Part shown: positions 12,257 to 42,577 of the stretch, one piece after another
Position numbering within the stretch: position 1 is the first letter of the stretch
Layout: every line of letters starts with the position of its first letter
NCBI GenBank assembly: GCA_963774265.1
Contig: CAVZDU010000001.1
Coordinates: 352,001 to 416,000, forward strand
DNA length: 64,000 bases
Direction: 5' to 3'
Origin: an uncultured Chloroflexia bacterium
GTDB lineage: Bacteria; Chloroflexota; Anaerolineae; CG2-30-64-16
Translations under genes and position numbers: made by a program
Notes under the pieces: generated by a model
Database searches by the model: none
What the model saw: the letters and a program-made list of their open reading frames with translations, nothing else
Told to the model about the DNA's origin: nothing

Positions 12257-13249
12257 TCATAGCCACCTCCTCAGCACAGCCGACAGCGCGGCAGCCAGAA
12301 TCGCCGTGACTGGAATCGTCGTCAGCCAAGCCGTGACAATCTGCCTGGCGGTACCCCAACGAACCTTGGAGACGCGCTCGGCCGAACCGACGCCCATAAT
12401 CGCCGAGCTGACGACCTGTGTCGTACTCACAGGGCCACCTATTAGCGCGGCCATGATGATGACCGAAGCCGAGGCAAACTGCGTGGTGAACCCATGGATG
12501 GGCCGAATTTTGTAGAACTTGCCGCCCAACGTCCGGATAAGCCGCCAGCCCCCGGTGGCGGTGCCGGCCGCGATGGCCCCCGCGCAGATTGCGATGACCC
12601 ACAGCGGCACGCGGAAGCTCGGTATCGATCCGGCCGAGACCAGCCCCAACGTAATGATCCCCATCGTCTTCTGCGCGTCGTTTGTGCCGTGGGAAAGCGC
12701 TAACGCCAACGCCGTCACGATCTGCCCCCGCTTGAAAAAAATATTGATGCCCGGAGTCGCTTCACGCGCCAGAAACAGCACCGTCTTCATCACCAGGTAG
12801 CCCGCGAGCAGGCCAAGGGGGGGTGAAATGGCGAGCGCCAACAATACTTTGCCTAGCCCGGCCAACCTCACGACGCCGAATCCACTGTCAACGATCGCCG
12901 CGCCGATCAGTCCGCCCACCAGCGCGTGAGATGAACTGGATGGAATGCCCAGCCACCAAGTGAACACGTTCCAGGTGATCGCGGCGATAAGCGCAGCCAC
13001 CACGACCACAAGCCGTATCTCGCCCTCATTCAGCACTTCGTGGCCGATGGTCGTGGCAACGGCGACCCCGAATAGGAATGGACCGACAAACTCTGCGATG
13101 GCCGTGATCGTCAACGCCTGCCGGCCCGTGAGAGCACGCGAGGCGATCATCGTCGCGACAATGTTTGAGCTGTCGTGAAACCCGTTCAAGAAGTCGAAGA
13201 CCAGCGCCAACACGATCAGCAACAGCAACTGCAAGGGGACTCCAAACAC
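12257..13249 (-). CDS. pit: Inorganic phosphate transporter, PiT family
   Basis: FLNGFHDSSN, GIPSSSSHALVGG, SHGTNDAQKTMG, GGWRLIRTLG, PVSTTQ. Confidence 0.95.
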   Translation of the reverse strand: MFGVPLQLLLLIVLALVFDFLNGFHDSSNIVATMIASRALTGRQALTITAIAEFVGPFLFGVAVATTIGHEVLNEGEIRLVVVVAALIAAITWNVFTWWLGIPSSSSHALVGGLIGAAIVDSGFGVVRLAGLGKVLLALAISPPLGLLAGYLVMKTVLFLAREATPGINIFFKRGQIVTALALALSHGTNDAQKTMGIITLGLVSAGSIPSFRVPLWVIAICAGAIAAGTATGGWRLIRTLGGKFYKIRPIHGFTTQFASASVIIMAALIGGPVSTTQVVSSAIMGVGSAERVSKVRWGTARQIVTAWLTTIPVTAILAAALSAVLRRWL

Positions 13250-13252
13250 ACC

Positions 13253-14221
13253 CTACTCCTTGTTGTCGCGTTCCACGGTGACCAGGCCTCTTTCGGCCAA
13301 CCAACTCAAGCCGTCAGCGATCTGTTCCGCCGAGCTGGCATTCCGGAACTCGCAAGTCCGTAAGATGTCGGTCGGGAGATGACGCGCAACCATGTTCCAC
13401 CTCATCTCCCCGTATCCCACGGGCAGGTGGTCATCCATGCCGATGATGTCGTGCAGATGCACGCCGATCATCCTGTCCGCGAAGCGTGTGAGCCAGTCCT
13501 CGTGCAGGCTGTAGCCCTTGTACTCCGATTTTTCCGCATGGCCGATGTCATGCCAGTAGCCGACCGTTTCGCCAAACCCCGACGCGAGTAGCTCATCCAG
13601 TTCGTGAATCAACGGGATATCGAAGTAATGATCGCGGTTTTCCACTCCCAGCCGGACGCCGCGCGGCGCGGCGTATCTGGCCAGCTCACCCAGGCTACGC
13701 CGCACAGACGCCAGGTGCGCAGCGGCTCGCTCGCTGCGCGCGGCCATCATTATCGATTTGGCCTCCTCGTATGCGGGGGTGTCGCGTTTGCCTTCCTTGT
13801 AAAGACGCGTCAACACGGCTTCAAGCGACTCGTCCATGTTCACCCGGCCGGAGTGGACGATCACAACCCGCGCCCCCAGATCGTGGGCCAGGTCTATGCT
13901 GCGTCGAACGGCCTCAACGCCGCGCCGCCGGTCTGCTTCGTCGATCGCAGAAATCAGCCAATCTCGCTCCTTGAGCTCTGCCACCGACACATCCGATGGG
14001 CAAGGCTCATGGACGCTGGTGATGCGCCGGCCGTTGAGGTGCACGCTCTCGAGCATGGCCGAGTCGACGCCATGATTCAGCTCGAAGCACGTGAAACCGG
14101 CCGTTTGCCCGGCCTCAAAGAACTCACCAAAACGCGCAAACCGCTGGATGCCCCACATGGTAGACAGGGCCACATGACACGTTTTCACTGGCCGCACTTC
14201 GGTTGCTTCCCTATTTGGCAC
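13253..14221 (-). CDS. Sugar-phosphate isomerase/epimerase-like TIM barrel (AP_endonuc_2 family)
   Basis: SVHEPCP, VIVHSG, LGVENR, WHDIGH, GVHLHD, DHLPVGYG, TCEF metal-site pattern. Confidence 0.75.
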   Translation of the reverse strand: MPNREATEVRPVKTCHVALSTMWGIQRFARFGEFFEAGQTAGFTCFELNHGVDSAMLESVHLNGRRITSVHEPCPSDVSVAELKERDWLISAIDEADRRRGVEAVRRSIDLAHDLGARVVIVHSGRVNMDESLEAVLTRLYKEGKRDTPAYEEAKSIMMAARSERAAAHLASVRRSLGELARYAAPRGVRLGVENRDHYFDIPLIHELDELLASGFGETVGYWHDIGHAEKSEYKGYSLHEDWLTRFADRMIGVHLHDIIGMDDHLPVGYGEMRWNMVARHLPTDILRTCEFRNASSAEQIADGLSWLAERGLVTVERDNKE

Positions 14222-15437
14222 TTAGAATCTCACTGATCTCACGCGTGGCCCAAAGTGCAGCGCCGGTGGTGTCGACAACCATGTCGCATGCCTCCAGCTG
14301 CGGCAGGTAGCACTTCTGAGCCATCAGAAACTGCTCTCTGAAAAACCTGTTGCGGAAGTAGTTAGGTTCGTATTTCTTCCGATAATCGACGTCTCGTTTC
14401 CATTTCCGCTTCATCCTGACCGCATCATCAGTCAGATATACCACCTTGATCCCGATCAGGTGCGCAACATCACTCAGCAGAAACGGGAAATTGCCCTCGA
14501 CCAAGACGATATCGGCCGGTTCGATCTCGATCGGAGCGCATCCCGGCTTCAGATTGCCGGCCAGGTTATGGCTGGAGGTGGCGCAAACGAAATCGTATCG
14601 AGGAGTGGCGATTTTGTGTCCCTGGCAGATGGCTTCCAGACTCTGTTTGAGAAGCTCAAAATGGAGTGCCTCTTTGCCGAGCGTGTCGATTCCTGTCTCC
14701 TCCCGATAGTCCCGGTCTGTCAGGAAGTTGTCCATCTCAATGGACGCTACTCTTGCGCCCGCCTCTTCAAGCAAGCCGCGCAGGCGCTCGACGATCTCGG
14801 TCTTGCCAGCCGCGGTTGGCCCAGCGACGGCGAAGAGGACAGGCGTTCCTTTAGCCGCGATGAGTCTCCTGGCACTTTCAACAAAGAGCTGATCAACCTC
14901 CGCATTCGCGGCCCTAAAATCCCTGTAGCCAACACCCTGGTAGCGCTCGAAGCGCTTCTGTCGCTGCTCGAAGCTCCTGAAGGGCATGCCCCCAAGGTGC
15001 GCCAACACTCCGTCGGTGAAATAGACCGTGCGGTGCAGAAAGTAGAATCCTCGGATGTCGAAGTAAAAGTGTTCGCCGACCCACTCTAGTGAGTACTCGC
15101 CCGTGACCAAACCAACAAAGAGCACGCGCGTCAGCCTGGCAATGTTCTCATCCAGCACAATCCGGCCGTCGACGCGTGGCTTGAGCTGGATCCGCGCATA
15201 GAAATCACTGCTGTTGACCCGCTTCTCGATCTCCTCCGCCCTGTCGATCTGTACCGAGCCCCAGCCCCCCTCGTCGGGGTAAAGATTCTGCAACGCATAA
15301 CGAAACTCATAAAGTTCCAGGTCCTCGACGCCTGGATTGATCCGCCTCAACTTGTCATACAACGCTTCGGCGAACAAATCCTGATCGGCGAATAGGTTTG
15401 ACACCGGCAACTCGTCCTCCGCTACACTATGCACCAT
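14211..15437 (-). CDS. PRK/uridine-kinase-fold P-loop kinase with unrecognised N-terminal domain (paralog B; start may be GTG 15404)
   Basis: VAGPTAAGKT, IEMDNF, PRYDF, LVEGNF, RMKRKWKRDVDYR. The first ~200 aa are shared with paralog A. Confidence 0.75.
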   Translation of the reverse strand: MVHSVAEDELPVSNLFADQDLFAEALYDKLRRINPGVEDLELYEFRYALQNLYPDEGGWGSVQIDRAEEIEKRVNSSDFYARIQLKPRVDGRIVLDENIARLTRVLFVGLVTGEYSLEWVGEHFYFDIRGFYFLHRTVYFTDGVLAHLGGMPFRSFEQRQKRFERYQGVGYRDFRAANAEVDQLFVESARRLIAAKGTPVLFAVAGPTAAGKTEIVERLRGLLEEAGARVASIEMDNFLTDRDYREETGIDTLGKEALHFELLKQSLEAICQGHKIATPRYDFVCATSSHNLAGNLKPGCAPIEIEPADIVLVEGNFPFLLSDVAHLIGIKVVYLTDDAVRMKRKWKRDVDYRKKYEPNYFRNRFFREQFLMAQKCYLPQLEACDMVVDTTGAALWATREISEILSAK

Positions 15438-16632
15438 ACTTGCCTACGCGACCCGCGTTGGCAAGCGCAATCGGCATGATGTCCTTGGCCGGCAGCACTC
15501 CCAGGCTGCCTCGCGCACAAGCGCGCTCGCCGAACTCGCCGATGCCGTCTGGGCGCACGTGCGGGGCGTACAGCAGCGTCGGCACCGGATGCCAACTGTG
15601 CGATTTAAGCACGGCCGGCGATGAATGGTCGCCACTGACGATTACCACGTCTGGCCCGAGCGACAGCAGGCGCGGCATCAGCGCATCTACCTCCTCAATG
15701 ACGCGCACCTTGCCCGCGAAGTCGCCGCTCTCGCCTGCTGTGTCGGTCTGCTTGACATGCAGATAGAAGAAATCGAAATCTCTCCAATTCTTCTCCAGCG
15801 CGGCAAACTCGTCTGCAATTGTCACGCCCTGGACGGCCAGGGTCGTCATCCCCACGAGTTTGGCAACCCCGCGATACATGCCGTTCACCGCGATGGCGGC
15901 GGCACGGAGGCCGAAAAGCTCCGCATATTGAGGCACCGCGGGAAATCGGGCGAAACCGCGCAGCAGGATCATATTGGCGGGCTGCCTGTCCCGCAACAGC
16001 CGGCCCGCTTGTGTGATGAATTGATTTGCCAGCGCTGCGGCTCGTTCGGAGTCTGGCCTGAGCGCGTTCACCGACAGGGGCTTCACGCCGATCGCTTGTG
16101 GATCCGTCTCGGTCAGGGCATCGCTCAGGCCAGCCCCTCGCATCACAAAGGCGAAACGGTGCTCCTTGACCAGCTCGACAAAGCAGTCGGCGCCGTCGAG
16201 CCGGATCGTCCGCAATAACTCCGCCAGCTCCCGGCTCGCCTCGGTCGGCAGCCGCGCGGCGCGACGATCCGTCAATACCCCCGCCGCGTCAACCGTGCAG
16301 AAATTGCCGCGCGCGGCCACGTCGTCAGGTCCCAGTTCAAAGTCGACCCCGAGCGCCTCCAGCGCCCCGCGGCCGATCTCGTACTCGAGTGGATCGTAGC
16401 CGAATATGGCAAGATGTCCCGGACCGCTGCCCGGTGTAATGCCCGGCCCCACGGGAACGGTCAGCCCCAGCGCCGATTGCGCGGCCAGCGCGTCGAGATT
16501 GGGCGTGGCCGCAGTTTCCAACTCAGTCTTGCCGCCCGGCTCCAACGGCAATCCACCGAGCCCGTCCATGATAATCATCGCAATCTTCGTGCGGGCCGGC
16601 ACAATCAAGTCTTGCAGAAACCTGAGATTCAT
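15427..16632 (-). CDS. apgM: Cofactor-independent phosphoglycerate mutase, archaeal-type (ApgM)
   Basis: MDGLGG, GKTELETAATPNLD, GITPGSGPGHLAIFGYDP, GRGALEALG, RGNF, KQTDTAGE, GDHSSP, HSWHPVP. Confidence 0.85.
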   Translation of the reverse strand: MNLRFLQDLIVPARTKIAMIIMDGLGGLPLEPGGKTELETAATPNLDALAAQSALGLTVPVGPGITPGSGPGHLAIFGYDPLEYEIGRGALEALGVDFELGPDDVAARGNFCTVDAAGVLTDRRAARLPTEASRELAELLRTIRLDGADCFVELVKEHRFAFVMRGAGLSDALTETDPQAIGVKPLSVNALRPDSERAAALANQFITQAGRLLRDRQPANMILLRGFARFPAVPQYAELFGLRAAAIAVNGMYRGVAKLVGMTTLAVQGVTIADEFAALEKNWRDFDFFYLHVKQTDTAGESGDFAGKVRVIEEVDALMPRLLSLGPDVVIVSGDHSSPAVLKSHSWHPVPTLLYAPHVRPDGIGEFGERACARGSLGVLPAKDIMPIALANAGRVGKYGA

Positions 16633-16690: not shown

Positions 16691-17875
16691 CTAGAGGATT
16701 TCGGCCATTTCCGGCGTTACCCATATGGCTGCGTCGGTCGTATCAACAACAATGTCGCACACCTGCATTTGGGGCTGATAACAGTCCATGGCCCTCAGAA
16801 ACTGAGTCCTGAAGAAACGGTTGCGAAAGTAGTTGGGATCATACTTCTGCCGATAGTCAATATCGCGTTTCCATTTCCGTTTGAGCCTGATCGGATCATC
16901 TGTCAGGTACACCACTTTAACTCCGATGTAGTCAGCCAGCTCCTTGCTCTGAAATGGAAAATTGCCCTCAAGGAAAATGACATCAGCCGGCTCAATCTCC
17001 AGTGGAGCGCAGCCCGGCTTCAGGTTGCCGTCCAAATCGTGGCTGGAGACAGACGAAGTGTAGCGAGGAATAGCGATCCTTTGCCTTTGGATGATCGCCT
17101 GAAGGCTCTCCATAAAGAGTCCAAAATGGTAGGCTTCTCTCCCTAGCGAATTGATGCCCATCTCATCCCGATAGTCGTTGTCGAGAAGGAAGTTATCCAT
17201 CTCGATGGAGGTAACCTTTCTTCCTAGTTGCTCAAGCGCACATCGCAAGCGCGCGACGATCTCGGTCTTTCCAGCGGCCGTGGGCCCGGCAAGCGTGACA
17301 AGAATGGGCGTGCCCTTCGCTGCGACGAGCCTCTTGACACTCTCGATAAAGCACTGATCCACCTGGGCATTAGCCTCTTTGAAGGCTTTGTAGCCCACAC
17401 TCTGGCACCGTTCAAATCGCTTTTGCCCCTGATCGAAGCGCCTCCATGGCTCGCCGTCAAAATGCGCCAACACCTGATCCGTGAAATAGGTGGTGCGACT
17501 CAGGAAGAGAAAACCTCTGATGTCGAAATAGAAATGCGTTCGAACCCACTCTTCTGAGTAGTCTCCCGTGACCAGGCCCACGAAAAGCATGTCGGTCAAC
17601 TGCACGATGTTTTCGTCCAGCACAATCTTGCCGTCGACCAGCGGCTTAAGTTGGATGCCAACATAGAAGTCGCGCGTGCCCATCCGCAGTTCGATATCTG
17701 CCTGGGCATCCAGCTTTACAGACGCCCAGCCTCCGGGCTTAGGGCACAGGTTGTCCAGTGCGTAACGGAATTCGTAGAGTTCCATTTCCTCCACCGCTGG
17801 GGCAATCGACTTCATCTTCTCGTACAGGAGAGAGGAAAAAACATCGGGATTGGACAACATGTGCGATGCCGACAT
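16691..17875 (-). CDS. PRK/uridine-kinase-fold P-loop kinase with unrecognised N-terminal domain (paralog A)
   Basis: LAGPTAAGKT, IEMDNF, FLEGNF, RLKRKWKRDIDYR. Colinear with 14211-15437 along its whole length. Confidence 0.75.
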   Translation of the reverse strand: MSASHMLSNPDVFSSLLYEKMKSIAPAVEEMELYEFRYALDNLCPKPGGWASVKLDAQADIELRMGTRDFYVGIQLKPLVDGKIVLDENIVQLTDMLFVGLVTGDYSEEWVRTHFYFDIRGFLFLSRTTYFTDQVLAHFDGEPWRRFDQGQKRFERCQSVGYKAFKEANAQVDQCFIESVKRLVAAKGTPILVTLAGPTAAGKTEIVARLRCALEQLGRKVTSIEMDNFLLDNDYRDEMGINSLGREAYHFGLFMESLQAIIQRQRIAIPRYTSSVSSHDLDGNLKPGCAPLEIEPADVIFLEGNFPFQSKELADYIGVKVVYLTDDPIRLKRKWKRDIDYRQKYDPNYFRNRFFRTQFLRAMDCYQPQMQVCDIVVDTTDAAIWVTPEMAEIL

Positions 17876-17886: not shown

Positions 17887-20184
17887 CTAGCTCGCGACAA
17901 CCTGCCGCCCGATGCCGAACACAAACGCATCGTACGCTCGTTTGGTCTTGGCATAGTTGCCATTGCGATCGAGCGCGATGCCTCTCCCAACGCCCGAAAC
18001 GATTTGCCCGATGCCGATCTCGGCCACCCGGCGTCCCAGTTTCTCCAACAGCGCGGGCGCACTCCCCGGCTCAGTGCTGCGGCCGTCAAAGATCACATGC
18101 ACGTAGACGTCGTTCAAGCCATACGCCTTGGCCATGCGCAGTAGCGCCAGCGGATAGTCAATCGAGCCATGTGAGCTTCTTTCCGAGAGCAGGCCGATCA
18201 GGTGCAGGCTGGCCCCGCGCTGCCGGACGTCCGCTATGGTGCGCAACAAAACCTCGTTGGTGTAGAACGAGCCATCCTGCATCGCCAGGCCTAGCCGCAC
18301 GTCGTCCTGCAGCACCACGCGGCCCGCGCCGATGTTCATGTGACCGGCCTCTGAATTGCCTGGCTTGTCCGCCTGCAGTCCCGCCGCCTCGCCAGCAGCC
18401 TGCAACTGGGCAAGTCCATAGCGCTGCGTCAGTGCGTCCCAGGTCGGCGTCGCTGCGAGCCAGATCGGATTATTCTCGTCCTCCTTGCCGATACCCCAGC
18501 CGTCGAGGATGATGAGCAGCACGCGGCGCGCCCCTCCCCAGTCATGCTCGAGCGCCAGACTTGCGCCATCCATCGTTTGCGGCTGCGGGATGCCGAGCGC
18601 ATGCAGTACGGTCGGCGCGATGTCGGCCAGCTTGCCATTGCGCAGGCGCACGAGCGACGGCCCAGCCGGATCCAGCAGGAGGAACGGCACGGGGTTGGCC
18701 GTGTGCGCGACGTGGGGCGTGCCGTCAGGGGTGGTCAGCTCTTCCAGGTTGCCGTGGTCGGCGGTCACGAGGACGACATAGCCAGCGGCGAGCGCGGCGT
18801 CCACCACCTGCCCCAGCCGCGTATCTACGGCCTCGGCGCACGCGAGCTTGGCGGCGCGGTTAGCCGTGTGGCCGATAACGTCGCCGTTGGCGAAGTTAGT
18901 TACGATCAGATCGTAGTGATCGGCGATGCCGAGCGCCACCCCGGCGGAGACCTCCGCCAGGCTCAGCTCCGGCGCCTGTTCAAAGGGAATCCTGGTGGGC
19001 GAAGGGATGCAGACATCGTGCTCGCCGAAGAATGGCTGGCTATTCCCGCCGTTGAAGAAAAACGTGACGTGTGCGAATTTCTCCGATTCGGCGATACGCA
19101 GTTGGCGCAGACCGGCGCGGGCCACAGCCTCTCCCAGGGTGTCCCTGATCTTCGTCGGTGCGAAGGCCACCGGCAGGTCCTTGAATTTCTCGTGGTAGAG
19201 CGTCAGGATGACGAAGGGGAGGTTGCTGAAATCGCGGCGCGGAAAGCGATCGAACCCCCGCTCGGTGAATGCCTCGGTCAACTGGATCTGGCGTTCGCCT
19301 CGCCTGCAGCAAAAGATCACAGCGTCGCCATCCTCAATCCGGCCAATCGGGGCGCCCTGCGCGTCCACCAGAACCAACGGTTCGAGGGCGTAATCGGTTT
19401 CGCCCTCGCGATACAACTCCCTCACTCCCTCGGCCAGAGCAACAGCGTCGGACGGCACAGGACGTGACGGGAAGATCTCCAGCAGGTCGCTGAGCTTGTG
19501 GATGATGAGATCGGGCCGGTCTTCGTCCGGGACAGGTGCGTCGCGGTCGTCGGGACTCGCCAGGATGATCACACTCCCGAAGCCGGCCTTGCGTGTCCCG
19601 AGGACATCCCGGGCGGTGTTATCGCCTACGTAGGCGCATCGCGCCGGATCAACGCCAGCCAACCGCGCGGCTTCCTGGTAAATGGCCGGGTCCGGTTTGC
19701 GCTTCCCGAAGACGGACGAGAGGATGACCGACTTGAAATAGGGGGCAAGTCCGTCGGCCTCAAGCCAGTCGGGGATCTCCCGGCTGGTGATGACGTTGCT
19801 GATGATCCCCAGAATGTAGCCGCGGCGGTGCAGCTCGAGGATGACTTGCCGGGCATCTTCCTGCACCACCCGCCGCCCCATGGTCTGGCGGTACTGGTAG
19901 GTCAGCTCAACCGCCAGCCCCGCGATCTCGTCGTCCGGATAATCGGGCAGCAGCCAGCGCGTCCACAGCTCGGCTTCAGGGGCTTCGATCAAGTGCTCGG
20001 TCGCCCACTTTCGGTAGACCTGGTAGTGCCGGTCAATCTCCTGGCAGAAGGTCTCGGGGTCTACGTGAGTCCCGACCAGCGTGGCGATCTGCTGCCGCGC
20101 CCGCGCCTGATGCGCCTCGTCTTTCAAGAGGATGCGCAAGGTATTGCCGAGGTCCAGGAAAACGGCATCAATCTCAGGAGTCAT
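17887..20184 (-). CDS. Fusion of a HAD-IA hydrolase and a circularly permuted GpmI-type (iPGM) phosphomutase
   Basis: HAD motifs (FLDLGNTL, ISN, KPDP, YVGD..D), then the GpmI C-half (GETD..DGDAVIF, AESEKFAHVTFFFNGG, NFANGDVIGH, TADHGN, AHTANPVP, LADIAPT), then the GpmI N-half (LIILDGWG, GNSEAGHMNIGAGR, LHLIGLLS, FDGR, GR..DR). Confidence 0.9.
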   Translation of the reverse strand: MTPEIDAVFLDLGNTLRILLKDEAHQARARQQIATLVGTHVDPETFCQEIDRHYQVYRKWATEHLIEAPEAELWTRWLLPDYPDDEIAGLAVELTYQYRQTMGRRVVQEDARQVILELHRRGYILGIISNVITSREIPDWLEADGLAPYFKSVILSSVFGKRKPDPAIYQEAARLAGVDPARCAYVGDNTARDVLGTRKAGFGSVIILASPDDRDAPVPDEDRPDLIIHKLSDLLEIFPSRPVPSDAVALAEGVRELYREGETDYALEPLVLVDAQGAPIGRIEDGDAVIFCCRRGERQIQLTEAFTERGFDRFPRRDFSNLPFVILTLYHEKFKDLPVAFAPTKIRDTLGEAVARAGLRQLRIAESEKFAHVTFFFNGGNSQPFFGEHDVCIPSPTRIPFEQAPELSLAEVSAGVALGIADHYDLIVTNFANGDVIGHTANRAAKLACAEAVDTRLGQVVDAALAAGYVVLVTADHGNLEELTTPDGTPHVAHTANPVPFLLLDPAGPSLVRLRNGKLADIAPTVLHALGIPQPQTMDGASLALEHDWGGARRVLLIILDGWGIGKEDENNPIWLAATPTWDALTQRYGLAQLQAAGEAAGLQADKPGNSEAGHMNIGAGRVVLQDDVRLGLAMQDGSFYTNEVLLRTIADVRQRGASLHLIGLLSERSSHGSIDYPLALLRMAKAYGLNDVYVHVIFDGRSTEPGSAPALLEKLGRRVAEIGIGQIVSGVGRGIALDRNGNYAKTKRAYDAFVFGIGRQVVAS

Positions 20185-21604
20185 TGACCCTCAGTGGGAA
20201 GATATCCAGCAGCTCGCGGCACGAGCGAATGATCACGTCGGGCATGTTGTCGCCGGTGGGAGGCTCCCTCTTCTTCTTGGCCTCATCCATCAGGATGATG
20301 ATCATCCCGAAGCCGGCCCGCCGGGTGCCCTCGACATCACGAAGTGGATTGTCACCGACATAGACGCATCGCGCCGGCTCGACGCCGATCCGCCGCGCGG
20401 CCTCCCAGTAGATCTCGGGCCCAGGTTTCCGGTTTCTGACCTTGGACGATAGCACCACCGCCTGGAAGTAGCCGGTGAGGCCGTCGGATTCGATCCAATC
20501 CGGGATCTCGGTCTCGGTGATGGTATTGGCGATGATCCCCAGGCGGTAGCCGCGCCGGTTCAACTCCAATACGGTTTCTTTTACGTCAGGCCGCGGGACG
20601 CGCCGCCCATCGTGATCGCGCCACAGTCTCGTGAGCTTTCCTGCCAGAGGGCCGATCTTCGCGGCCGGGAAATCGGGCAGCATGAAACGGGTCCACAATT
20701 CTTTCTCGGATGCTTCGGTCAGGGTCTCAAAAGACCACTTTCGGTAGGCTTTCCATCGTTCATCCAACTGTGCGAAGAACGTCGTCTCGGGGGTTTCTTG
20801 CGCTCCCACCAAAGACCTGAGCTGCTGCCTGGCCTCAGCCTGAAACGTCGCGTCTTCCACCACGATGCGCAGGGTGTTGCCGACGTCTAAAAAGATGGCT
20901 TCGATGTCCGGAATTCTCGCCGCAGCCTGTGGCGCTGCTGGTCGCTCGAATATGGGAACGTCAAGCAGGTCCGGCAGCGTCTCGGCGTAATAGTCAGCCC
21001 TGGCTTGCGGGTCGTATCGCACCGCCACGGTGGCCAGCCCTACTTGTTTGGCCCCCTCAAGCTCCCTGGCATCATGACCTACGAAGGCCGATTCAACCAC
21101 CGAGAGCCGCGCTTGCTGGACTGCGTTCAGGAAGATGGCAGGATCTGGTTTGCGCACGCCCAATGTTGAGGAGCACGCCACGACATCGATATATTCGGCA
21201 ACCCCTACTTGCTCAAGCCAATCCATTTTCTGTTCGAGCGGATAGATTGTGTCTGTGACAATGCCCAATAGAAAGCCGCGCCGCTTCAGCACCGCCAAGG
21301 TCTCTGGGCCACCCGGGACCGCGCGCACTGCGTTCGCGTGCGCCAGGATCTTCGCGACCAGCGCTGCGCGCTCTTCCGATCTGTCCACGCGATGGGTCCG
21401 GAGTACCTGGTCCCAATAGGCGACGGGATCGACGAAGCCCACGTTCGCACCTTGGTACATACTCTCGAGGAGCGCCTTATCCTCGGCAGAGAGGGGACCT
21501 GCGTAGCCCGCTTCCATGAGGATGCGGGCAGCGGCGTCATCCGTCCGTTCATCCCGCTCATAAAACACATCGGCTGCATCGAAGAAAATGCCTTTGATCG
21601 CCAT
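20174..21604 (-). CDS. Tandem two-domain HAD-IA hydrolase
   Basis: Domain 1 FFDAADVF..KPDP..FVGHD; domain 2 FLDVGNTL..KPGP..YVGDNPLRD. Start ATG 21604 after GAGG. Confidence 0.85.
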   Translation of the reverse strand: MAIKGIFFDAADVFYERDERTDDAAARILMEAGYAGPLSAEDKALLESMYQGANVGFVDPVAYWDQVLRTHRVDRSEERAALVAKILAHANAVRAVPGGPETLAVLKRRGFLLGIVTDTIYPLEQKMDWLEQVGVAEYIDVVACSSTLGVRKPDPAIFLNAVQQARLSVVESAFVGHDARELEGAKQVGLATVAVRYDPQARADYYAETLPDLLDVPIFERPAAPQAAARIPDIEAIFLDVGNTLRIVVEDATFQAEARQQLRSLVGAQETPETTFFAQLDERWKAYRKWSFETLTEASEKELWTRFMLPDFPAAKIGPLAGKLTRLWRDHDGRRVPRPDVKETVLELNRRGYRLGIIANTITETEIPDWIESDGLTGYFQAVVLSSKVRNRKPGPEIYWEAARRIGVEPARCVYVGDNPLRDVEGTRRAGFGMIIILMDEAKKKREPPTGDNMPDVIIRSCRELLDIFPLRVNDS

Positions 21605-21667
21605 CTCAATCGCCTCTTGCCATCCACCCCGGATGATGGATCGCCGTGCGGGCACTAGCACCCGTCG

Positions 21668-25055: not shown

Positions 25056-25068
25056 GGTTGCCTCTCCC

Positions 25069-27925: not shown

Positions 27926-27955
27926 TTGACAACCGCGATGCCCTGGTAGTATACT
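27926..27955 (+). promoter_or_regulatory. Promoter of the lacI/iol operon
   Basis: TTGACA (27926-27931), 18-bp spacer, TATACT (27950-27955). Confidence 0.7.
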
Positions 27956-27994
27956 CTGACCGTCTTGCACACGTGTGCAAGACGGTCAGAGTAT
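27951..27994. promoter_or_regulatory. Perfect 44-bp palindrome with LacI-type operator core TTGCACACGTGTGCAA
   Basis: ATACTCTGACCGTCTTGCACAC|GTGTGCAAGACGGTCAGAGTAT, with no spacer and no mismatch. Confidence 0.85.
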
Positions 27995-28055
27995 GGAGTA
28001 ACAAGGCCCGCATTTCCATCAGCCAGCCCGCTCGTTCGGAGGAGTCAGGAGTGTC

Positions 28056-30125: not shown

Positions 30126-30233
30126 CTCCTCCTCACTCCCTCCCTCATCAGGGATGGATGGGGGAGGATGTGAGACGGCATGAAAAAATCAAGCGAGTGC
30201 GCAACGGAGCCGGACACAGACCTTCTGACTTTA

Positions 30234-30262
30234 TTGCAGGCGCTGCGGCGTTCTAATATAAT
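30234..30262 (+). promoter_or_regulatory. Internal promoter upstream of the second dehydrogenase
   Basis: TTGCAG, 17-bp spacer, TATAAT, followed by the operator-like GTGTGATCGTTTCAC. Confidence 0.5.
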
Positions 30263-33107: not shown

Positions 33108-33141
33108 TGCACGCGCATTCCAAAGGATAGAGGGCAATCCC

Positions 33142-34158: not shown

Positions 34159-34338
34159 AGCACCGGTCAAGGTGTCCCGGAACGATTGTGACCCGGCCCG
34201 TTCAATCGGTGACGCAATGACAGGAGGTGATGTATGTAGGAGGAGATGCGGTGCCCGCATCCAGCAAGTTGCTCGACTCTCGGAGCTGCACTGGCAGCCC
34301 ATATCTGAATCAGGTCACTCACCTAACAAGGAGGAACT

Positions 34339-37114
34339 ATGAAGGTCTTTAGGCTCGTAAGCCTGTTGATCGTCGCGGCCATCGTCCTGACGTCGTGCGC
34401 CACCCCCACAGCTGCACCGCAACCCACCTCCGCCTCTGCGCCGGCGGCAGCTCAACCGACTACGGCACCGGCTGCGCCAGCAGCAAAGCAGCCCCAGGAC
34501 ATCAAGATCCTGGTGAACATGAAGGGACCTGGCGGCGGCAACCCGTTCTGGGCCGCCGTGGAACAGGGCGCGATCGACGCCGGCAAGGCGCTCGGCGTGC
34601 AGGTGACTGTGATGGCGCCGCCGGCCGAGTCCGACGTGCCCGCGCAGATTGCCCAGATCGAAGACGCACTGACCAAGGGTGTGGACGGCATCGCGCTCGC
34701 ACCGACCGATCCGGCCGCGCTCGCACCGGTCGTGCAGAAGGCACTGGACAAAGGTGTCAAGGTGGTGTTCATTGACACCAAGGGCCAGAACGAAGGCGTC
34801 ACCTTCATCGGCACCAACAACGAAGCCGGCGCCAAGCTGGCCGGCGATTACATGTGCAAGAACCTCAAGTCGGGCGACAAGGTCGCCATCTTGCAGGGCC
34901 TCATCACGCAAAGCACCGGCAAAGCACGCGCCGATGGCTCCAAAGCCGGCCTCTCGGCCTGCGGTCTCAACATCGTCGCTGAAACCCCAGCTGAATGGGA
35001 CACGGCCAAGGCCCAGGCTGCCATGGAAGACATCCTGACCAAGAACCCCGACCTCAAGGGGGTCTTCGGCAGCAACGACAACATGGCGCTCGGTGCCGTC
35101 GAAGCCATCAAGAACGCTAAGCTCACCGGCAAAGTCATGGTGGTCGGCTTCGACGCCAACCCGAACGCGGCGGCGGCGGTGTTGGCGGGCCAGATGAACG
35201 CGACGGTGGCCCAAGCGCCGTCAAACATGGGCAAGTTCGGCGTCGAGAATCTGCTCAAGCTGATCCAGGGTGAGACGATCCCCGGCAACATCGATACCGG
35301 CACGGAACTCGTCACCATCGACAACGCGGCCAAGTATGCACCCGCCGGAGCAGCGCCGGCAGCGGCAACGAAGGATCTCAAGGACATCAAGATCCTGGTG
35401 AACATGAAGGGACCTGGCGGCGGCAACCCATTCTGGGCCGCCGTGGAGCAGGGTGCGAAGGACGCCGGCAAGGCGCTCGGCGTGCAGGTGACTGTGATGG
35501 CGCCGCCGGCCGAGTCCGACGTGCCCGCGCAGATTGCCCAGATCGAAGACGCACTGACCAAGGGTGTGGACGGCATCGCGCTCGCACCGACCGATCCGGC
35601 CGCGCTCGCACCGGTCGTGCAAAAGGCGCTGGACGAGGGTGTCAAGGTGGTGTTTGTTGACACCAAGGGCCAGAACGAAGGCGTCACCTTCATCGGCACC
35701 AACAACGAAGCCGGCGCCAAGCTGGCCGGCGATTACATGTGCAAGAACCTCAAGTCGGGCGATAAGGTCGCCATCTTGCAGGGCCTCATCACGCAAAGCA
35801 CCGGCAAAGCGCGCGCCGATGGCTCCAAAGCCGGCCTCTCGGCCTGCGGTCTCAACATCGTCGCTGAAACCCCAGCTGAATGGGACACGGCCAAGGCCCA
35901 GGCTGCCATGGAAGACATCCTGACCAAGAACCCCGACCTCAAGGGGGTCTTCGGCAGCAACGACAACATGGCGCTCGGTGCCGTCGAAGCCATCAAAAAC
36001 GCCAAGCTCACCGGCAAGATCATGGTGGTCGGCTTCGACGCCAACCCGAATGCGGCGACGGCGGTGCTGGCGGGCCAGATGAACGCGACGGTGGCCCAAG
36101 CGCCGTCAAACATGGGCAAGTTCGGCGTCGAGAATCTGCTCAAGCTGATCCAGGGTGAGACGATCCCCGGCAACATCGATACCGGCACGGAACTCGTCAC
36201 CATCGACAACGCGGCCAAGTATGCACCCGCCGGAGCAGCGCCGGCAGCGGCAACGAAGGCAGCTCAAGGACATCAAGATCCTGGTGAACATGAAGGGACC
36301 TGGCGGCGGCAACCCGTTCTGGGCCGCCGTGGAGCAGGGTGCGAAGGACGCCGGCAAGGCGCTCGGCGTGCAGGTGACTGTGATGGCGCCGCCGGCCGAG
36401 TCCGACGTGCCCGCGCAGATCGCCCAGATCGAAGACGCACTGACCAAGGGTGTGGACGGCATCGCGCTCGCACCGACCGATCCGGCCGCGCTCGCACCGG
36501 TCGTGCAAAAGGCGCTGGACAAGGGTGTCAAGGTGGTGTTTGTTGACACCAAGGGCCAGAACGAAGGCGTCACCTTCATCGGCACCAACAACGAAGCCGG
36601 CGCCAAGCTGGCCGGCGATTACATGTGCAAGAACCTCAAGTCGGGCGACAAGGTCGCCATCTTGCAGGGCCTCATCACGCAAAGCACCGGCAAAGCGCGC
36701 GCCGATGGCTCCAAAGCCGGCCTCTCGGCCTGCGGCCTCAACATCGTCGCTGAAACCCCAGCTGAATGGGACACGGCCAAGGCCCAGGCTGCCATGGAAG
36801 ACATCCTGACCAAGAACCCCGACCTCAAGGGGGTCTTCGCCAGCAACGACAACATGGCGCTCGGTGCAGTCGAAGCCATCAAGAACGCCAAGCTCACCGG
36901 CAAGATCATGGTGGTCGGCTTCGACGCCAACCCGAACGCGGCGGCGGCGGTGCTGGCGGGCCAGATGAACGCGACGGTGGCCCAAGCGCCGTCAAACATG
37001 GGCAAGTTCGGCGTCGAGAATCTGCTCAAGCTGATCCAGGGCGAGACCATCCCCGGCAACATCGACACCGGCACAGAACTCGTCACCATCGACAACGCGG
37101 CCAAGTACAAGTAA
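34339..37114 (+). CDS. RbsB-type sugar-binding lipoprotein with three tandem near-identical binding domains (1-bp indel near 36260)
   Basis: Lipobox LTSC. The domain KILVNMKGPGGGNPFW..DTGTELVTIDNAAKY occurs three times, joined by APAGAAPAAATK. Single stop at 37112-37114. Confidence 0.85.
34498..37110 (+). repeat. Three tandem ~885-bp direct repeats
   Basis: GACATCAAGATCCTGGTGAAC starts at 34498, 35383 and 36269. Copies differ by scattered substitutions. Confidence 0.95.
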
Positions 37115-37171: not shown

Positions 37172-37186
37172 GCAATCGAGGCAAAC

Positions 37187-38201
37187 ATGACAGACAGAGT
37201 CAACATCGCCGTCATCGGGACGGGGCGTATGGGCAGCGTCCACACGCGCAACCTGGTGCGCAAAATCCCCGAAGCTAACGTCGCCGCGGTGTGCGACATC
37301 CGACTGGATGTCGCACAGACCCTCGCCGACGAGCTCGGCATCCAACGGGTCGTGGCAGACTATCACGAGTTGCTGGCCGATCCAGATATACCGGCCGTTC
37401 TCATCGCGACGCCGACAGATACCCATACCATGATCATCGAAGACGCGGCTCGAGCGGGCAAGCACATTTTTTCCGAGAAAGCCGCTCTCGCTCGATCTGG
37501 CCAGCATTGACGCGGCGCTGGACGTGGTGGAGCAGGCCGGGGTCAAGTTGCAGGTAGGCTTTAACCGGCGTTTCGATCAGAGCTTCAGGCGCCTCCGAGA
37601 AGTCGTGGCCTCGGGCCAGATTGGCCGGCCCTGCATCTTGCGCATCACCGACCGCGACCCGGAGCCGCCTCCGATTTCCTACATCAAGAACGCCGGCTGT
37701 ATCTTTCTCGACCTGACCATCCACGATTTTGACATGGTGCGTTACCAGATGGGGGATGTGGAAGAAGTCTATGCAACCGGCAATGTCCTGATCAACCCGG
37801 AGATCGGTGAAGTGGACGATATCGATACCGCCGTGGTCACGTTGCGCTTCGCCAACGGCGCGCTCGGTTTGATTGATAACAGCCGCCAGGCCGTGTATGG
37901 CTACGATCAGCGCCTCGAAGTGCTGGGGACAACCGGCGCGGTTATGGCGAATAATCAGACGATAGACACAGTTTCGCAAGCCGACGTTAATGGTTTTCAC
38001 TCATCCGTGCTGCCCCACTTCTTCATGAACCGGTATGCGGAAGCGTATGTGACCGAAGTGCGGGAGTTTATCGAATGTGTTCGGGACGACAAGACGCCAT
38101 CGGTCACCGGGCGTGACGGACGACTCGCGGTGGTGCTTGCCCATGCCGCTATCAGGGCATGGAAAGAAAATCGTCCGGTCAGGTTGAGTGAGATCGGATA
38201 G
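37187..38201 (+). CDS. iolG: myo-Inositol 2-dehydrogenase (Gfo/Idh/MocA), frameshift near 37480
   Basis: IGTGRMG, ATPTDTH, SEK(P), QVGFNRRFD, RDPEPPP, FLDLTIHDFD, NSRQAVYGYDQRLEV. Confidence 0.88.
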
Positions 38202-38260
38202 GACGGCTCTCCTTTGGACGCCCAGCCCGTCCCTAATCTGCAACCATCAGGAGCTACTTC

Positions 38261-39386
38261 ATGTCAAGCCAAGTGATTCCGCAAGGTCTTCTACCCACCA
38301 ACCTCCCCGACCTCTTCTTCGAGGACAACGCGGTCGGACGGATGAAGAAGGAAGTCTGGGATGCCAGCGACGCCCAGATCGACGCCATCCTGGCCGAGTA
38401 CGGCGTGCCTTCCCCGGTGGAGTGGGGCAAGCCCGGCTCCTATATCCAGACGACAACGCGCTGGCAGGTGGAGGAAAACCGGAAGAAGAACGACATCGTC
38501 TTCATTCCGGTCGGCTGCACTGAGCTGCACGGCCAGCACCTGCCCAGCGCATCCGACACCCTCTACGTCAGCCAGATCTGCGAGGGCGTGCGGCGCTACA
38601 CCGCCAAGCGCGGCGCTGCCGTCAACCTGGCGCTGCCCCCGCTGAACTACGGCGCGCATCCGTACCACCACGTCGGCATGCCCGGCACCGTCATCGTGCG
38701 CGAGCACGTCGTGCGCGAGATGATGATCGACGTGATGCTCGGCCTGTGGAACGACGGCTTCCGCAAGCAGCTCATCGTCAACAACCACGGCCAGTTGTGG
38801 GTGCTGGAGTCGGCGGTGCAGGAGTTCCAGAAGCGCTACCAGCTTCCCGGCATCTTCCGGGTGATCGACTGGCACCGCGGCGTGCGCGAGTTCTTCCGCG
38901 CCACCGACCGGGGCGGCCGGCTGGACACCAACTTCGTCCACGCCGACGAATCGGAGACCTCGCTGGGCCTGCTGCTGCACCCCGACATGGTGGACATGAA
39001 GTACGCCGTCGACACCGAGGGCAAGAGCTATCTGCCCGACGGCCACTTCGACAAGTCGGTGGATCCCTTCGGCCGGCCGTCCCGCTGGTCGGAAGGCGAA
39101 GGCCACTTCGCCATCGAGATCGCGGCCACGCCGGAGGGTGTGGTGGGCAAGTCCACGCACGGCGCGGCCGAGAAGGCCAAGCGTCCCGATGGCGGCCATC
39201 CTGAAGTACCTGACGCTGTGGAACGACCACGTGCTCGAGGCCTTCCCGCCGGGCAAGGTGCCGCCGGTGGAGGAAGTCACGTTGCGCACCGAGCGGGACA
39301 TGGAGCCCTACCTGCGCGAGCCGCTGAGCGAGGGCTGGAAGCCGGTCTACGCGCTGCCGCGGATCGGGCAGGGGACAGAGGTCTGA
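38261..39386 (+). CDS. iolN: 3-dehydro-scyllo-inosose hydrolase (creatininase family), frameshift near 39185
   Basis: IPVGCTELHG, YGAHPYHHVGMPGT, WNDGFRKQ..NNHGQ, FVHADESETS, LPDGHFDK, PEGVVGK and EPLSEGW match Thermotoga IolN as recalled. Confidence 0.85.
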
Positions 39387-39505: not shown

Positions 39506-40704
39506 ATGAAGGGCAAGATGCAGGGCGTGACCCTGGTTGCGGATTGGGCGCCCAAGCCGGGTTTCACACTCGGCGCGAAGGACATCGAAGGTCGCCAGAC
39601 CTATCTGGGCAGCCAGGTATGGAAGAACCCACGGATCGAGATGCGAGAGTACGACATCCCCATCACCGGGTCCGGAAGAAGTGCTGCTGGAGGTCAAGGC
39701 GTGCGGCATCTGCGGCTCGGATGTCCACATGGCCCAGGCGGAGCAGGACGGCTACATCTTCTACCCCGGGCTGACGGGCTTTCCCTGCATTCTCGGGCAC
39801 GAGTTCTCGGGCGTGGTCGTCGAAGCGGGCAAGAATGCGTTCGACAAGCGAACGAACAAGCCCTTCAAGGGCGGCGAGCCGGTCACGTCGGAGGAGATGC
39901 TGTGGTGTGCGCAATGCCGTCCGTGCGCCGACGGGCAGCCCAACCACTGCGAGCGGCTGGACGAAGTGGGCTTCAACGTCAACGGCGCGTATGCCAAGTA
40001 CATGGTGCTGCCGTCGCGCACGCTCTGGAGCCTGGAGCCGCTGAAGAAGGTCTACAAGGGCGACGACCTCTTCATCGCCGGCAGCCTGGTGGAACCCACC
40101 AGCGTGGCCTACAACGCCGTGATCGAGCGCGGCGGCGGCATCCGCCCGGGCGACCGCGTCGTCATCCTGGGCGGCGGGCCGATCGGCCTGGCGGCCTGCG
40201 CCATCCTCAAGCGAGCCGGAGCATCCCAGGTCATCATCTCCGAGCCGCAGGAAGAGCGCACCCGGCTGGCGCTGCAGATCGGCGCGGACTACGCCATCAA
40301 CCCGCTCAAGGAGGACTTCGCCGAGCGCGTGCTGGAGATCACCGAGGGCATGGGCGCCGATCTGTTCATGGAGGCCACCGGCCTGCCGACGGTGGTCTAT
40401 CCCGGCATCGAGCGCGTCATCTGGGAGGGCCGGACGCTGAACAGCCGCGTGGTGGTGACGGCCCGCGCCGAGGCCAAGATGCCGGTGACCGGCGAGGTGC
40501 TGCAGGTGCGCCGCGCCAGCATCATCGGCGCGCAGGGCCATTCGGGGCACGGCAACTTCCCGCGCGTGATCGAGTGCATGGCCACCGGCATGGACATGAC
40601 GCGCATCAGCACCAAGAAGATCACGCCTGGAGGAGGTGCCGGAGAACATCATCAAGCTGCAGACCGATCGCAGCGAGTGCAAGATCACGTACGTGGCAAG
40701 CTGA
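39506..40704 (+). CDS. iolM: scyllo-Inosose 3-dehydrogenase (Zn MDR), two frameshifts
   Basis: ADWAPKPGF..KDIEG..TYLGSQVWKNP, CGICGSDVHM, YPGLTGFP..GHEFSG, EEMLWC..C..C, GAQGHSGHG. Stop TGA at 40702-40704. Confidence 0.88.
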
Positions 40705-40901
40705 AAACCAGCAGTCTTGAGATGGCCCTGCGTCGCAGGTGTTCGCAGGGCCAGGTCGGGAGAGCGATGAAGATCCAGTTTCTCGGCACCGGCACCGGCC
40801 TGCCCAGCCGTGGTGGCTGGGCTGATGAACGAGGACGGGGAATGAATAGAGAGAGGCAAGAGATCGGAAACAGGATCGCCCAGGGCGGTCGCCCAGGGCG
40901 A

Positions 40902-41717
40902 ATGAGTGTCGTACTGTCCACGCAGCCGGCCCGTTTTGAGGCGGTGGCGTTCAAAGGGGATTTCGAGGCCAACCTGGCGCGCATCGCAGGATATGGTTAC
41001 GAGGGCGTCGAGCTGGCCGTACGCGAGCCGGCACTCCTGGACGCCGACGACGTGTGGGCGAAAGTGACCGCCGTCGGGCTGACGGTGCCGGCCATCGGCA
41101 CCGGACAGGCCTGGGGCGAGGAGGGGCTGTCCTTCACCGATCCCTCGGCCGAGGTGCGCGCCGCTGCGATCGCACGGGCCAAGAGCCACATTCCGTTGGC
41201 CGAGCACCTGGGCGCCACAATCATCATCGGCCTGCTCCGCGGCATCTTGCGGCCGGGAGTTGGTCGCGACCAGGCCATGGCCTGGCTGGTGGCCGCACTC
41301 GAGGAGTGCTGCGACGCGGCAAAGGGCGCAGGCGTACGCCTGGCCCTGGAGCCGATCAACCGCTACGAGACGACGCTCATCAACACGGTTGCCCAAGGCA
41401 TGGCGCTGCTCGAGGCCGTGGGCGCGACCAACCTGGGCCTGCTGCTGGACACCTTCCACATGAACATCGAAGAGCCGATCATCGAAAACAGCATCCAGCA
41501 AGCGGGCGACCACATCTTCCACTTTCATGTGGCAGACTCAAACCGCTGGCATCCGGGCGCGGGGCATCTGGACTTCGCAACGATGCTCACGTCGTTGTTC
41601 GGCACGGGCTACACCGGCTTCGTCAGCGGGGAGTTCTTGCCGATGCCGGATGCAGAAACGGCAGCGCTACGAGGGATTAAACATCTGCGCGGCCTGACAG
41701 AATCAGGCCATCCTTAG
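40902..41717 (+). CDS. iolO: 5-keto-L-gluconate epimerase
   Basis: [63 protein letters not shown]. Confidence 0.85.
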
Positions 41718-41740
41718 ACGTCACACCTTCAGGAGGGGCA

Positions 41741-42577
41741 GTGCTGCTTGGCTTTCACGGCGCTACCACGATGACCAGCGACCTGGAGACAGATGTCGCC
41801 GCGACCCGGCGGGCAGGGTTCACGGCATTGGAACTCTGGGCATCCAAGATCGACCGGTATCTGGCCACGCATTCTATCGCGGAACTGCGGGGCTTACTTG
41901 AGAGCAACGGCATCGCGCCGATGAGCATCAACTCGATCGAGTTCATCGCGTTTCGCAGCGATGACGAATATCGCGGGATCAAGGAGCGCTGCAAGCAGCT
42001 ATCCGAAATCTGCGAGCAGATCGGCTGTCCGGTCGTGGTGGTCGTTCCCAGCCCCACCCCCGATCGCAACGTGCCGTGGGATGATGTGGTGGCGGAGTAC
42101 GTGAAGGTGCTTCGGGAGTTGGCGGATATCGCTGCGCCGCATGGTGTGGGGCTTTCCTTCGAGTTCCTGGGCTTCGGTTGGTGCACGGTTCGGACGCCGC
42201 GCGCCGCGTGGGAAATAGTCAAGAAGACCGGCCGCGCCAACGTCGGCATCACGGTCGACTGCGCTCATTTTTATGGAGGCGGCGGCCTGATGACAGAGCT
42301 CGACGATCTCGACCCCTCCCGCATCTTCGTGTTCCATCTCGACGACCTCGAAGACACACCGAAAGAGGCGATCAGCGATGCCACCCGCCTGCTGCCAGGC
42401 CTGGGCGTCATCCCGCTCGACGAAATTTGCCGGCACATGAAGGCCAATGGCTACGATGGGGCCTGCTCCATCGAACTGTTCCGCCCCGAGTATTGGGAGT
42501 GGAATGCAACCGACCTCGCCGTGAAGGCGCGAGAGGCGGCCCTGCAGGTGCTATCACCGCACTTCGCCGTGGAGTAA
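41741..42577 (+). CDS. iolI: Inosose isomerase (IolI-like TIM barrel)
   Basis: [52 protein letters not shown]. Confidence 0.78.

Follow-up and report, generated by a model that had tools for sequence, protein, structure and literature searches.

Introduction

Inositol phosphates are among the largest organic phosphorus pools in soils and sediments, and to our knowledge their microbial use rests on phytases of four families (histidine acid, beta-propeller, PTP-like and purple acid). Known phytases are mostly secreted, periplasmic or vesicle-borne. Here we analyse a 64,000-nucleotide stretch of DNA, called the window throughout, from an uncultured Chloroflexia bacterium of the Anaerolineae (GenBank assembly GCA_963774265.1, contig CAVZDU010000001.1, positions 352,001 to 416,000). 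Chloroflexota of the Anaerolineae type are abundant and mostly uncultured. The window holds a minus-strand operon that combines an ATP-binding cassette (ABC) importer with HAD domains, two phosphoglycerate-mutase homologues and two P-loop kinases, and a divergent plus-strand operon with genes of inositol catabolism.

The right-hand operon has a described counterpart in Thermotoga maritima, TM0411-TM0416, which codes for IolG, IolM, IolN, IolO and TM0415, a pyrophosphate (PPi)-dependent myo-inositol kinase according to PMC5931981. The same four enzymes are encoded in the window, UxaE accompanies them, and a TM0415 homologue ends the cluster in many related loci, whereas in our genome the TM0415 homologue lies on another contig than the window. 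We know of no module of HAD proteins, permuted mutase, ApgM and P-loop kinases beside the Thermotoga operon.

For the left-hand operon, the likeness to known systems is looser. Its substrate-binding protein (SBP) shares a predicted fold class with AfuABC, MctA and P5PA (template-modelling (TM) scores of 0.6-0.7), and a fused permease with a single ATPase is typical of the Fbp/Afu/Thi/Phn group. However, the SBP is only 13-19% identical to these proteins, its Pfam match is below cut-off, and Afu operons come without processing enzymes. Known phytases and MINPP share with the operon the same proposed net removal of phosphate, but here import would come first and the catalysts would be HAD proteins, alkaline-phosphatase-superfamily proteins and kinases. 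Pfam and NCBIfam detected no phytase-family domain in the 12 cluster proteins, and a genome-wide search for beta-propeller (PF02333) and PTP-like (PF14566) phytases, with the histidine-acid branch-2 and purple-acid families outside its scope, gave neither in this 84% complete genome.

We propose, with a probability of about 0.55, that the left operon serves to take up inositol phosphates and to turn them, within the cytoplasm, into inositol for the neighbouring catabolic genes, a reading drawn from sequence comparison. The route is probably not previously described: a literature search, with supplements outside its scope, returned no publication that describes such a pathway or a permuted phosphoglycerate mutase, and term look-ups in PMC12406696 and PMC12482443 gave neither import of inositol phosphates by an ABC system nor a route for them in the cytoplasm. 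If true, the proposal would add a new route in phosphorus and carbon cycling for Anaerolineae-type Chloroflexota. It would give work to a permuted mutase, to HAD domains without the usual acid/base residue and to P-loop kinases with an additional N-terminal domain, and it would provide candidate intracellular phytate-degrading enzymes together with a candidate phytate-binding protein.

Linkage of the cluster to inositol catabolism

The left operon consists of 12 co-oriented genes that run on the minus strand from 27800 down to 12257 (~16 kb), neighbours overlapping by 11 nt or standing 3 to 224 nt apart (Table 1). The listing of open reading frames (ORFs) and the Pfam and NCBIfam scans bear out the gene content, order and strand given in an earlier reading of the same DNA (the original prediction). 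Facing it, on the plus strand, are lacI, two medium-chain dehydrogenases/reductases (MDR), a ROK kinase, a ribose-type ABC system, iolG, iolN, iolM, iolO and a TIM barrel. The four iol genes are 58-88% identical to intact orthologues in a related genome, G076, and their names are justified because these orthologues pass the NCBIfam equivalog cut-offs: 430.7 bits on TIGR04380 for IolG (cut-off 355), 525 on NF041097 for IolM (450), 310.4 on NF041098 for IolN (245) and 340.1 on NF041099 for IolO (300), the last also matching TM0416 (2zvr) at 5.8e-67. The fifth name in the predicted series, iolI, had been given to the terminal TIM barrel and is not confirmed: an AP_endonuc_2 match is all that this gene shows, and no IolI model matched 41741-42577 in the NCBIfam scan. 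The uxaE gene of this genome lies elsewhere (C10:74552-75995).

Relatives of the cluster were collected with the kinase as query. The metagenome scan gave 336 confirmed relatives, with 80 loci kept, and the genome scan three loci. The core (RpiR, permease, ATPase, SBP, HADs, permuted mutase, ApgM, kinase and TIM barrel) recurs in 29 stretches that are 9 kb or longer (called places below) and in 10 further genome loci seen with ±20 kb of context, in Anaerolineae-like genomes and metagenomes and with two main arrangements of gene order. The TIM-barrel gene is found in most related clusters. Frequent extras are a major facilitator superfamily transporter (11 loci), a PhoU_div/DUF47 protein with Pit, and a PfkB kinase; pit, often with PhoU_div/DUF47, comes after the cluster in several loci. 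In samples of genomes, the class yielded the kinase in 22 of 401 (21 of 400 without our own genome, G000) and in 14 of 215 genera, our own included; among other genomes of the phylum it was found in 3 of 400.

Physical ties to inositol or hexuronate genes were seen in 16 of the 29 places and in five of the 10 wide-context loci. All 13 loci of the "HAD-first" arrangement with a visible divergent side carry such genes, several of these loci being close kin. Two sets of genes share this position. Five loci have IolD (929 bits, cut-off 715), IolB (329 bits, cut-off 205), an IolG-like dehydrogenase, a transaldolase-like gene and an IolE-like barrel that stays below cut-off (201 bits against 290). 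The other eight have lacI, UxaE, a mannonate oxidoreductase and a LarA-like epimerase, a set that in G076 and G148 runs on into MDR1-IolN-IolM-IolO and IolG. In addition, a PfkB gene that matches TM0415 at 6.5e-39 stands at the 3' end of the cluster in seven of the 29 places and in five of the 10 wide-context loci.

At the level of whole genomes, a strong IolN orthologue (E<=1e-100, rows counted by hand in the 401-genome class sample) occurs in 17 of the 22 kinase-bearing genomes versus 97 of the 379 others (Fisher p = 1.4e-6, with kin genomes that are not independent; 12 of 14 by genus). Only G000, G486, G076 and G148 have IolN on the same contig as the kinase and within ~25 kb of the cluster. 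IolD was tried as a second genome-level marker and dropped, as it occurs in 79 of the 401 class genomes (a tally that includes two genomes flagged unpublished, G764 and G723) and in none of the 22 with the cluster. Since G330 and four loci from metagenomes nevertheless have IolD directly adjoining the cluster, carriers of the classical route must sit outside the class sample.

The link between the cluster and inositol genes is therefore frequent and not obligatory. The predicted coupling to inositol catabolism stands as a recurrent feature and falls as a universal one; homologous operons mostly unlinked from iol genes, in genomes without inositol catabolism, are not what the survey returned. 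Its incomplete occurrence leaves some room for a different explanation, namely that the cluster scavenges organophosphates or sugar phosphates broadly, for their phosphorus, and that inositol genes adjoin it because both belong to shared islands of carbon-source genes. Half of the wide-context loci have no inositol gene nearby and one genus (four genomes) keeps the cluster with neither IolD nor strong IolN; moreover, SBPs of the AfuA and P5PA types bind sugar phosphates and pyridoxal phosphate (PLP), and sugar phosphates are commonly sensed by RpiR regulators. Yet the linkage recurs with non-homologous inositol routes and in differing gene orders, which argues for selection, and the excess of IolN among cluster genomes is left unaccounted for. 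Nor did a Pho-box-like repeat surface in the promoter scan or repeat search of the divergent region, where no dedicated Pho-box search was made. We consider general scavenging quite improbable.

The divergent junction

From the start of rpiR (~27800) to that of lacI (28056), the divergent spacer measures ~255 bp, in agreement with the original prediction. It carries a near-consensus promoter facing lacI and a perfect palindrome that overlaps its -10 box and is plausible as a putative operator (Table 1). When the 16-nt core of the palindrome was sought across the genome as a regulon marker (<=2 mismatches), the site in the window was the single one found. The scan of the divergent region gave no consensus promoter for the rpiR side. 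An orthologue of lacI is divergent to the cluster in six related loci. In the window, the HTH_6 and SIS parts of rpiR fall in different frames; intact RpiR orthologues from related loci align across both.

The importer

The genes of the importer (SBP, permease, ATPase) rank among the best conserved of the cluster and always share the orientation of its enzymes. The model of the left SBP (predicted local distance difference test, pLDDT, 92.8) has as its nearest fold the metal-citrate SBP MctA (TM 0.65-0.71), followed by P5PA, which binds PLP, AfuA, which binds sugar phosphates, and ferric binders including FbpA; TM scores range overall from 0.6 to 0.76 at 13-19% sequence identity. We therefore describe it as having a predicted Fbp/Afu-type fold. 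By sequence, it reaches 17.7 bits on Pfam SBP_bac_11 (cut-off 25), and its matches to these fold neighbours are weak, phmmer aligning it to MctA at 4.9e-7 across ~70 residues only. The best NCBIfam match of the permease is PhnU2, with 156 bits, below cut-off.

Across orthologues the SBP has 58 invariant columns, nine of them acidic and five basic. A ligand that is metal-bridged or modestly charged would fit such a composition better than bare inositol hexakisphosphate. Phytate itself is one candidate, rather doubtful in our estimate; lower inositol phosphates left by the phytases of other organisms, or phosphodiesters such as glycerophosphoinositol, would fit as well.

Some relatives have a doubled set of components: G076 (locus L013, 4821-7603 and 9962-12557), G661 and G563 have an additional SBP gene, an additional TIM barrel or another full ABC system in the cluster. 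The doubling hints at several related substrates.

Two phosphoglycerate-mutase homologues

The protein encoded at 17887-20184 was predicted to contain a circularly permuted GpmI, a cofactor-independent phosphoglycerate mutase (iPGM), and alignment to the Bacillus enzyme confirms it: residues 252-544 align to Bacillus 218-509 and residues 554-759 to 5-210, so that the C-terminal part of the canonical order comes first. The protein scores 387.7 bits (E 9.5e-115) against the Bacillus enzyme and 466 bits over two stretches on TIGR01307 (cut-off 330.65). With residue numbers and roles (catalytic Ser62, Mn ligands) as in the Bacillus enzyme literature, all 17 permuted sequences share D12, S62, H66, D403, H407, D444, H445 and H462, and also H123, R153, R185, R191, R261, R264 and K336. 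Metal ligands and Ser nucleophile are thus kept as in GpmI and ApgM enzymes.

Unlike GpmI, the cluster homologue is permuted, often fused to a HAD domain, and has rewritten transferase-domain motifs: LLSDGGVHSH becomes LLSE[KR]SSHGS and LDGRDV becomes FDGRST. The substitutions D154S, F260R, G120K/R, Y186G, Y258C and N259C are likewise invariant (17 of 17), whereas three canonical iPGMs keep LLSDGGVHSH, LDGRDV and SGRYY.MDRDKRW, and at 120, 154 and 186 their residues are the standard ones; for position 260, 1ejj was the only reference. Because two basic residues are added (K/R120 and R260), D154 is lost and Tyr186 is replaced by Gly, these changes suggest a substrate larger and more anionic than phosphoglycerate.

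The second homologue, ApgM, scores 555.8 bits on NF003160 (cut-off 468) and 356.4 bits on TIGR00306 (cut-off 320). The two operon genes are the sole ones of GpmI type and ApgM type over cut-off in the genome, and gpmA lies elsewhere. Because gpmA covers the housekeeping role, the operon mutases are extra and not the glycolytic enzyme; unlike glycolytic iPGMs, both sit in a regulated catabolic operon.

The annotation of these two proteins speaks for a cluster that imports and degrades phosphoglycerates, 2,3-bisphosphoglycerate or cyclic 2,3-diphosphoglycerate (DPG). The mutases would then act as annotated, the kinases would be phosphoglycerate kinases working in either direction, and the HAD proteins would hydrolyse bisphosphoglycerate or a phosphoanhydride. 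ApgM stands above the mutase equivalog cut-off; phosphoglycerate-type substrates are possible for the permuted enzyme because it keeps R153, R185, R191, R261, R264 and K336, among them all the phosphoglycerate-binding arginines, besides its score to the Bacillus enzyme. A second phosphate could account just as well for the added basic residues, and a good leaving group, for instance a phosphoanhydride, would match HAD domains lacking Asp+2. This explanation, however, leaves the recurrent linkage to two inositol routes and to a TM0415-type kinase unexplained, and among the NCBIfam matches of either kinase there is no model named for 2-phosphoglycerate kinase, the best being PRK, udk and PRK09270-type models, all below cut-off. 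Producers of cyclic DPG are atypical of wetland, soil and wastewater, the labels of the sequencing runs that contain related DNA, in small shares only. A phosphoglycerate pathway seems to us improbable.

HAD domains and P-loop kinases

All four HAD domain types of the cluster, and their orthologues, keep the nucleophile Asp, and the acid/base Asp+2 is replaced by Gly or Ala. Motif I overall reads D-x-G-x-T or D-A-[GA]-D (positions 20174-22432 and 19465-20184): it is D-A-[AG]-D and D-V-G-N-T in the HAD-HAD protein and D-L-G-G-T in the single HAD protein, whose orthologues have D-[ML]-G-G-T in 17 of 17 cases. Motifs II-IV were recognised by eye.

Kinases A and B are 64% identical to each other and have an intact Walker A motif, which in kinase A reads AGPTAAGKTE and is kept in 11 of 11 aligned sequences. 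They pass the broad Pfam PRK family only, every udk or PRK equivalog model remaining below cut-off (44.9-62 bits on udk models against cut-offs of 180-220, and 64-75 on PRK07429 against 236). Like the UCK/PRK/PanK family, the C-terminal 200 residues share the P-loop fold and Walker A, and in the model of kinase A (pLDDT 80) this half alone resembles UCK/PRK/PanK structures. Unlike that family, the proteins have a conserved N-terminal domain of ~190 residues, which gave no structural match in the fold search; Atlas searches returned the Chloroflexota clusters of the proteins themselves only. In a large protein collection, 2385 relatives were found at E<=1e-3, called "uridine kinase" where named. 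Together, kinases, mutases and HAD domains without Asp+2 suggest phosphate transfer and not plain hydrolysis.

Such a set could also work on endogenous metabolites. Inositol or a keto-inositol might be phosphorylated, rearranged and dephosphorylated within an alternative inositol pathway, for example in the interconversion of stereoisomers, while the ABC system imports some other anion. The two P-loop kinases, joined in many loci by a TM0415-type PfkB protein, would have a role, and the right-hand operon has its own sugar/inositol-type importer; the authors of PMC5931981 suspect a pathway intermediate to be TM0415's true acceptor. But a lone intermediate would hardly call for four to six phosphatase-type domains, the terminal Pit/PhoU_div pair suggests bulk release of phosphate, and the importer is highly conserved and always co-oriented with the enzymes. 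We judge this possibility unlikely.

The proposed pathway

What the sequences show is the gene content, the conserved cluster, its repeated linkage to inositol genes and the features of the active sites; we infer the substrate, what each enzyme does and the direction in which the kinases run, as follows. The Fbp/Afu/MctA-type lipoprotein SBP, with the fused permease and the ATPase, would bring in an inositol phosphate in anionic form, possibly complexed with a metal. In the cytoplasm, phosphates would be removed or relocated by the four HAD domains and by both phospho-serine enzymes of the alkaline-phosphatase superfamily (permuted iPGM and ApgM). Exchange of phosphate with nucleotides would fall to the pair of P-loop kinases. 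The TIM barrel may isomerise an intermediate or cleave a phosphodiester; its matches are weak in NCBIfam (CbiR phosphodiesterase, 4.3e-6; IolE, 1.8e-4), and its top sequence match in the PDB is MJ1311 (3wqo, 3.7e-7). Pit would balance the released phosphate and RpiR would sense a phosphorylated intermediate. Finally, free inositol would be oxidised through the divergent IolG-IolM-IolN-IolO route, with UxaE encoded elsewhere in the genome.

Several observations weigh against this pathway. Of the 29 places, 13 show no inositol gene (many of them are cut by contig ends), and neither do five of the 10 wide-context loci; among the 22 genomes with the cluster, five have neither IolD nor strong IolN, namely G436 and four that belong to a single genus. 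No cluster protein belongs to a family with proven inositol-phosphate activity. ApgM passes the NCBI phosphoglycerate-mutase equivalog cut-off, and the permuted enzyme keeps the arginines and the lysine listed above. No HAD domain has the Asp+2 of ordinary phosphomonoesterases, and hydrolytic stripping gives the kinases no role. The conserved columns of the SBP show no obvious pocket for a bare polyanion. Lastly, none of the iolG, iolN and iolM reading frames in the window is intact.

A variant of the proposal would give the kinases their work. The P-loop kinases might run towards ATP with the high-transfer-potential phosphates of crowded inositol polyphosphates, a form of substrate-level phosphorylation in slow-growing Chloroflexota, with phytate-type compounds as its source. 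The TM0415-type PPi-dependent kinase of many relatives would in the same way form pyrophosphate, both phospho-serine mutases would shift the remaining phosphates to harvestable positions, and the HAD proteins without Asp+2 would be phosphotransferases or would use a neighbouring phosphate of the substrate. We hold this energy-conserving form to be an outside chance.

Table 1 Features of the two divergent operons and their junction, in window coordinates
Feature	Position	Strand	Evidence and remarks
Pit-type inorganic phosphate transporter, last gene of left operon	12257-13249	-	PF01384 PHO4, 292.7 bits
AP_endonuc_2 (xylose-isomerase-like) TIM barrel	13253-14221	-	PF01261, 70.7 bits
Kinase B, P-loop PRK/uridine-kinase-like, with conserved ~190-aa N-terminal domain	14211-15437	-	PF00485, 66.3 bits
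ApgM-type (archaeal-type) cofactor-independent phosphoglycerate-mutase homologue	15427-16632	-	NF003160, 555.8 bits
Kinase A, same family as kinase B	16691-17875	-	PF00485, 58.6 bits
HAD (residues 1-240) fused to circularly permuted iPGM/GpmI (residues 252-759)	17887-20184	-	Pfam/NCBIfam, alignment
HAD-HAD, two HAD domains in one protein	20174-21661	-	HAD_2 + Hydrolase, two stretches each; TIGR02253-like
Single HAD-domain protein	21668-22432	-	PF00702, 69.6 bits
Lipoprotein SBP of ABC importer	22537-23868	-	Model, predicted Fbp/Afu/MctA-type fold
ABC transporter ATPase	24093-25136	-	PF00005, 119.4 bits
Fused two-domain ABC permease	25069-26904	-	BPD_transp_1, two stretches
RpiR-family regulator (HTH_6 + SIS)	26924-~27800	-	Frameshift near 27600; SIS in ORF 26924-27613, HTH_6 in ORF 27585-28103
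Near-consensus promoter facing lacI	27926-27955	+	TTGACA-18-TATACT, 11/12 matches, sigma-70-type
Perfect 44-nt palindrome, candidate operator	27951-27994		22+22 nt, no spacer, 100% complementary; overlaps -10 box of lacI promoter
LacI-family regulator	28056-29063	+	LacI + Peripla_BP_3 + Peripla_BP_1
MDR zinc dehydrogenase 1	29080-30256	+	Frameshifts ~29320 and ~30046; 72-75% identical to G076 gene adjoining iolN
MDR dehydrogenase 2	30298-31251	+	
ROK-family sugar kinase without HTH	31280-32245	+	ROK_glcA_fam, 222.5 bits, under cut-off 260
Ribose/inositol-type ABC system: ATPase, permease, SBP of three tandem Peripla_BP_4 copies	32322-37114	+	
iolG (inositol 2-dehydrogenase)	37187-38201	+	Frameshift ~37475; 59-62% identity to G076 orthologue
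iolN (3-dehydro-scyllo-inosose hydrolase)	38249-39383	+	Frameshift ~39170; 87.5% and 75% identity to G076 orthologue over two frames
iolM (scyllo-inosose 3-dehydrogenase)	39506-40700	+	Frameshifts ~39665 and ~40625; 83% identity to G076 orthologue
iolO (5-keto-L-gluconate epimerase)	40893-41717	+	58% identity to G076 orthologue
AP_endonuc_2 TIM barrel (earlier "iolI")	41741-42577	+	PF01261, 127.7 bits; weak QuiC-like NCBIfam match

Frameshifts and assembly quality

Alignment with orthologues places one or two frame changes in each of rpiR, MDR1, iolG, iolN and iolM. Decay of the right operon into pseudogenes would fit its density of breaks, at least six in 13 kb compared with one in 16 kb of the left operon. 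However, relatives show single-base indels exactly at the frameshift sites, and genes outside the window are split as well, so that assembly error is the likelier cause and pseudogene decay less likely. The indels come from short-read contigs of relatives (~85-95% alike, four metagenome runs), drawn from 14 sequencing runs with related DNA at shares of at most 0.10; no RNA runs were listed among those holding related DNA. A 1-base deletion was found at 29319 in MDR1 and another at 40624 in iolM, the latter in seven contigs from three runs. Single gaps also occur in pieces spanning 27401-27668, 37416-37668, 38967-39227, 29945-30118 and 40473-40705, three contigs carrying one gap at the rpiR site, and contig pieces away from the frameshift sites showed no indels. 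Elsewhere in the assembly (10 contigs), the housekeeping gpmA (C9:119164-119896) is spread over three frames and uxaE over two, which points to indel errors across the whole assembly.

Other features of the window

The right-hand SBP gene (34339-37114) is built of copies spaced 885 and 886 nt that are 91-99% identical. Copies 1 and 2 share one frame, and copy 3 is shifted by one base. The 885-nt repeat is beyond the period limit of Tandem Repeats Finder (500) and was detected by a separate repeat search. One related contig joins 34451 to 36259, as though with fewer copies; the triple gene may encode a binding protein with three domains or may be an artefact of the assembly.

Upstream of the region, a fragment at 1902-2672 matches domain III of the Ppx/GppA phosphatase alone, and an OmpR-type two-component pair lies at 6915-8432. 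On the other side, 42638-49587 holds a 579-aa ORF that is adenine-deaminase-like (named by eye), then plus-strand ORFs of an ABC system: a permease (PF02653) and, again named by eye, a 476-aa lipoprotein-like and a 536-aa double-ATPase ORF. An Lhr-type helicase follows at 49648-54564.

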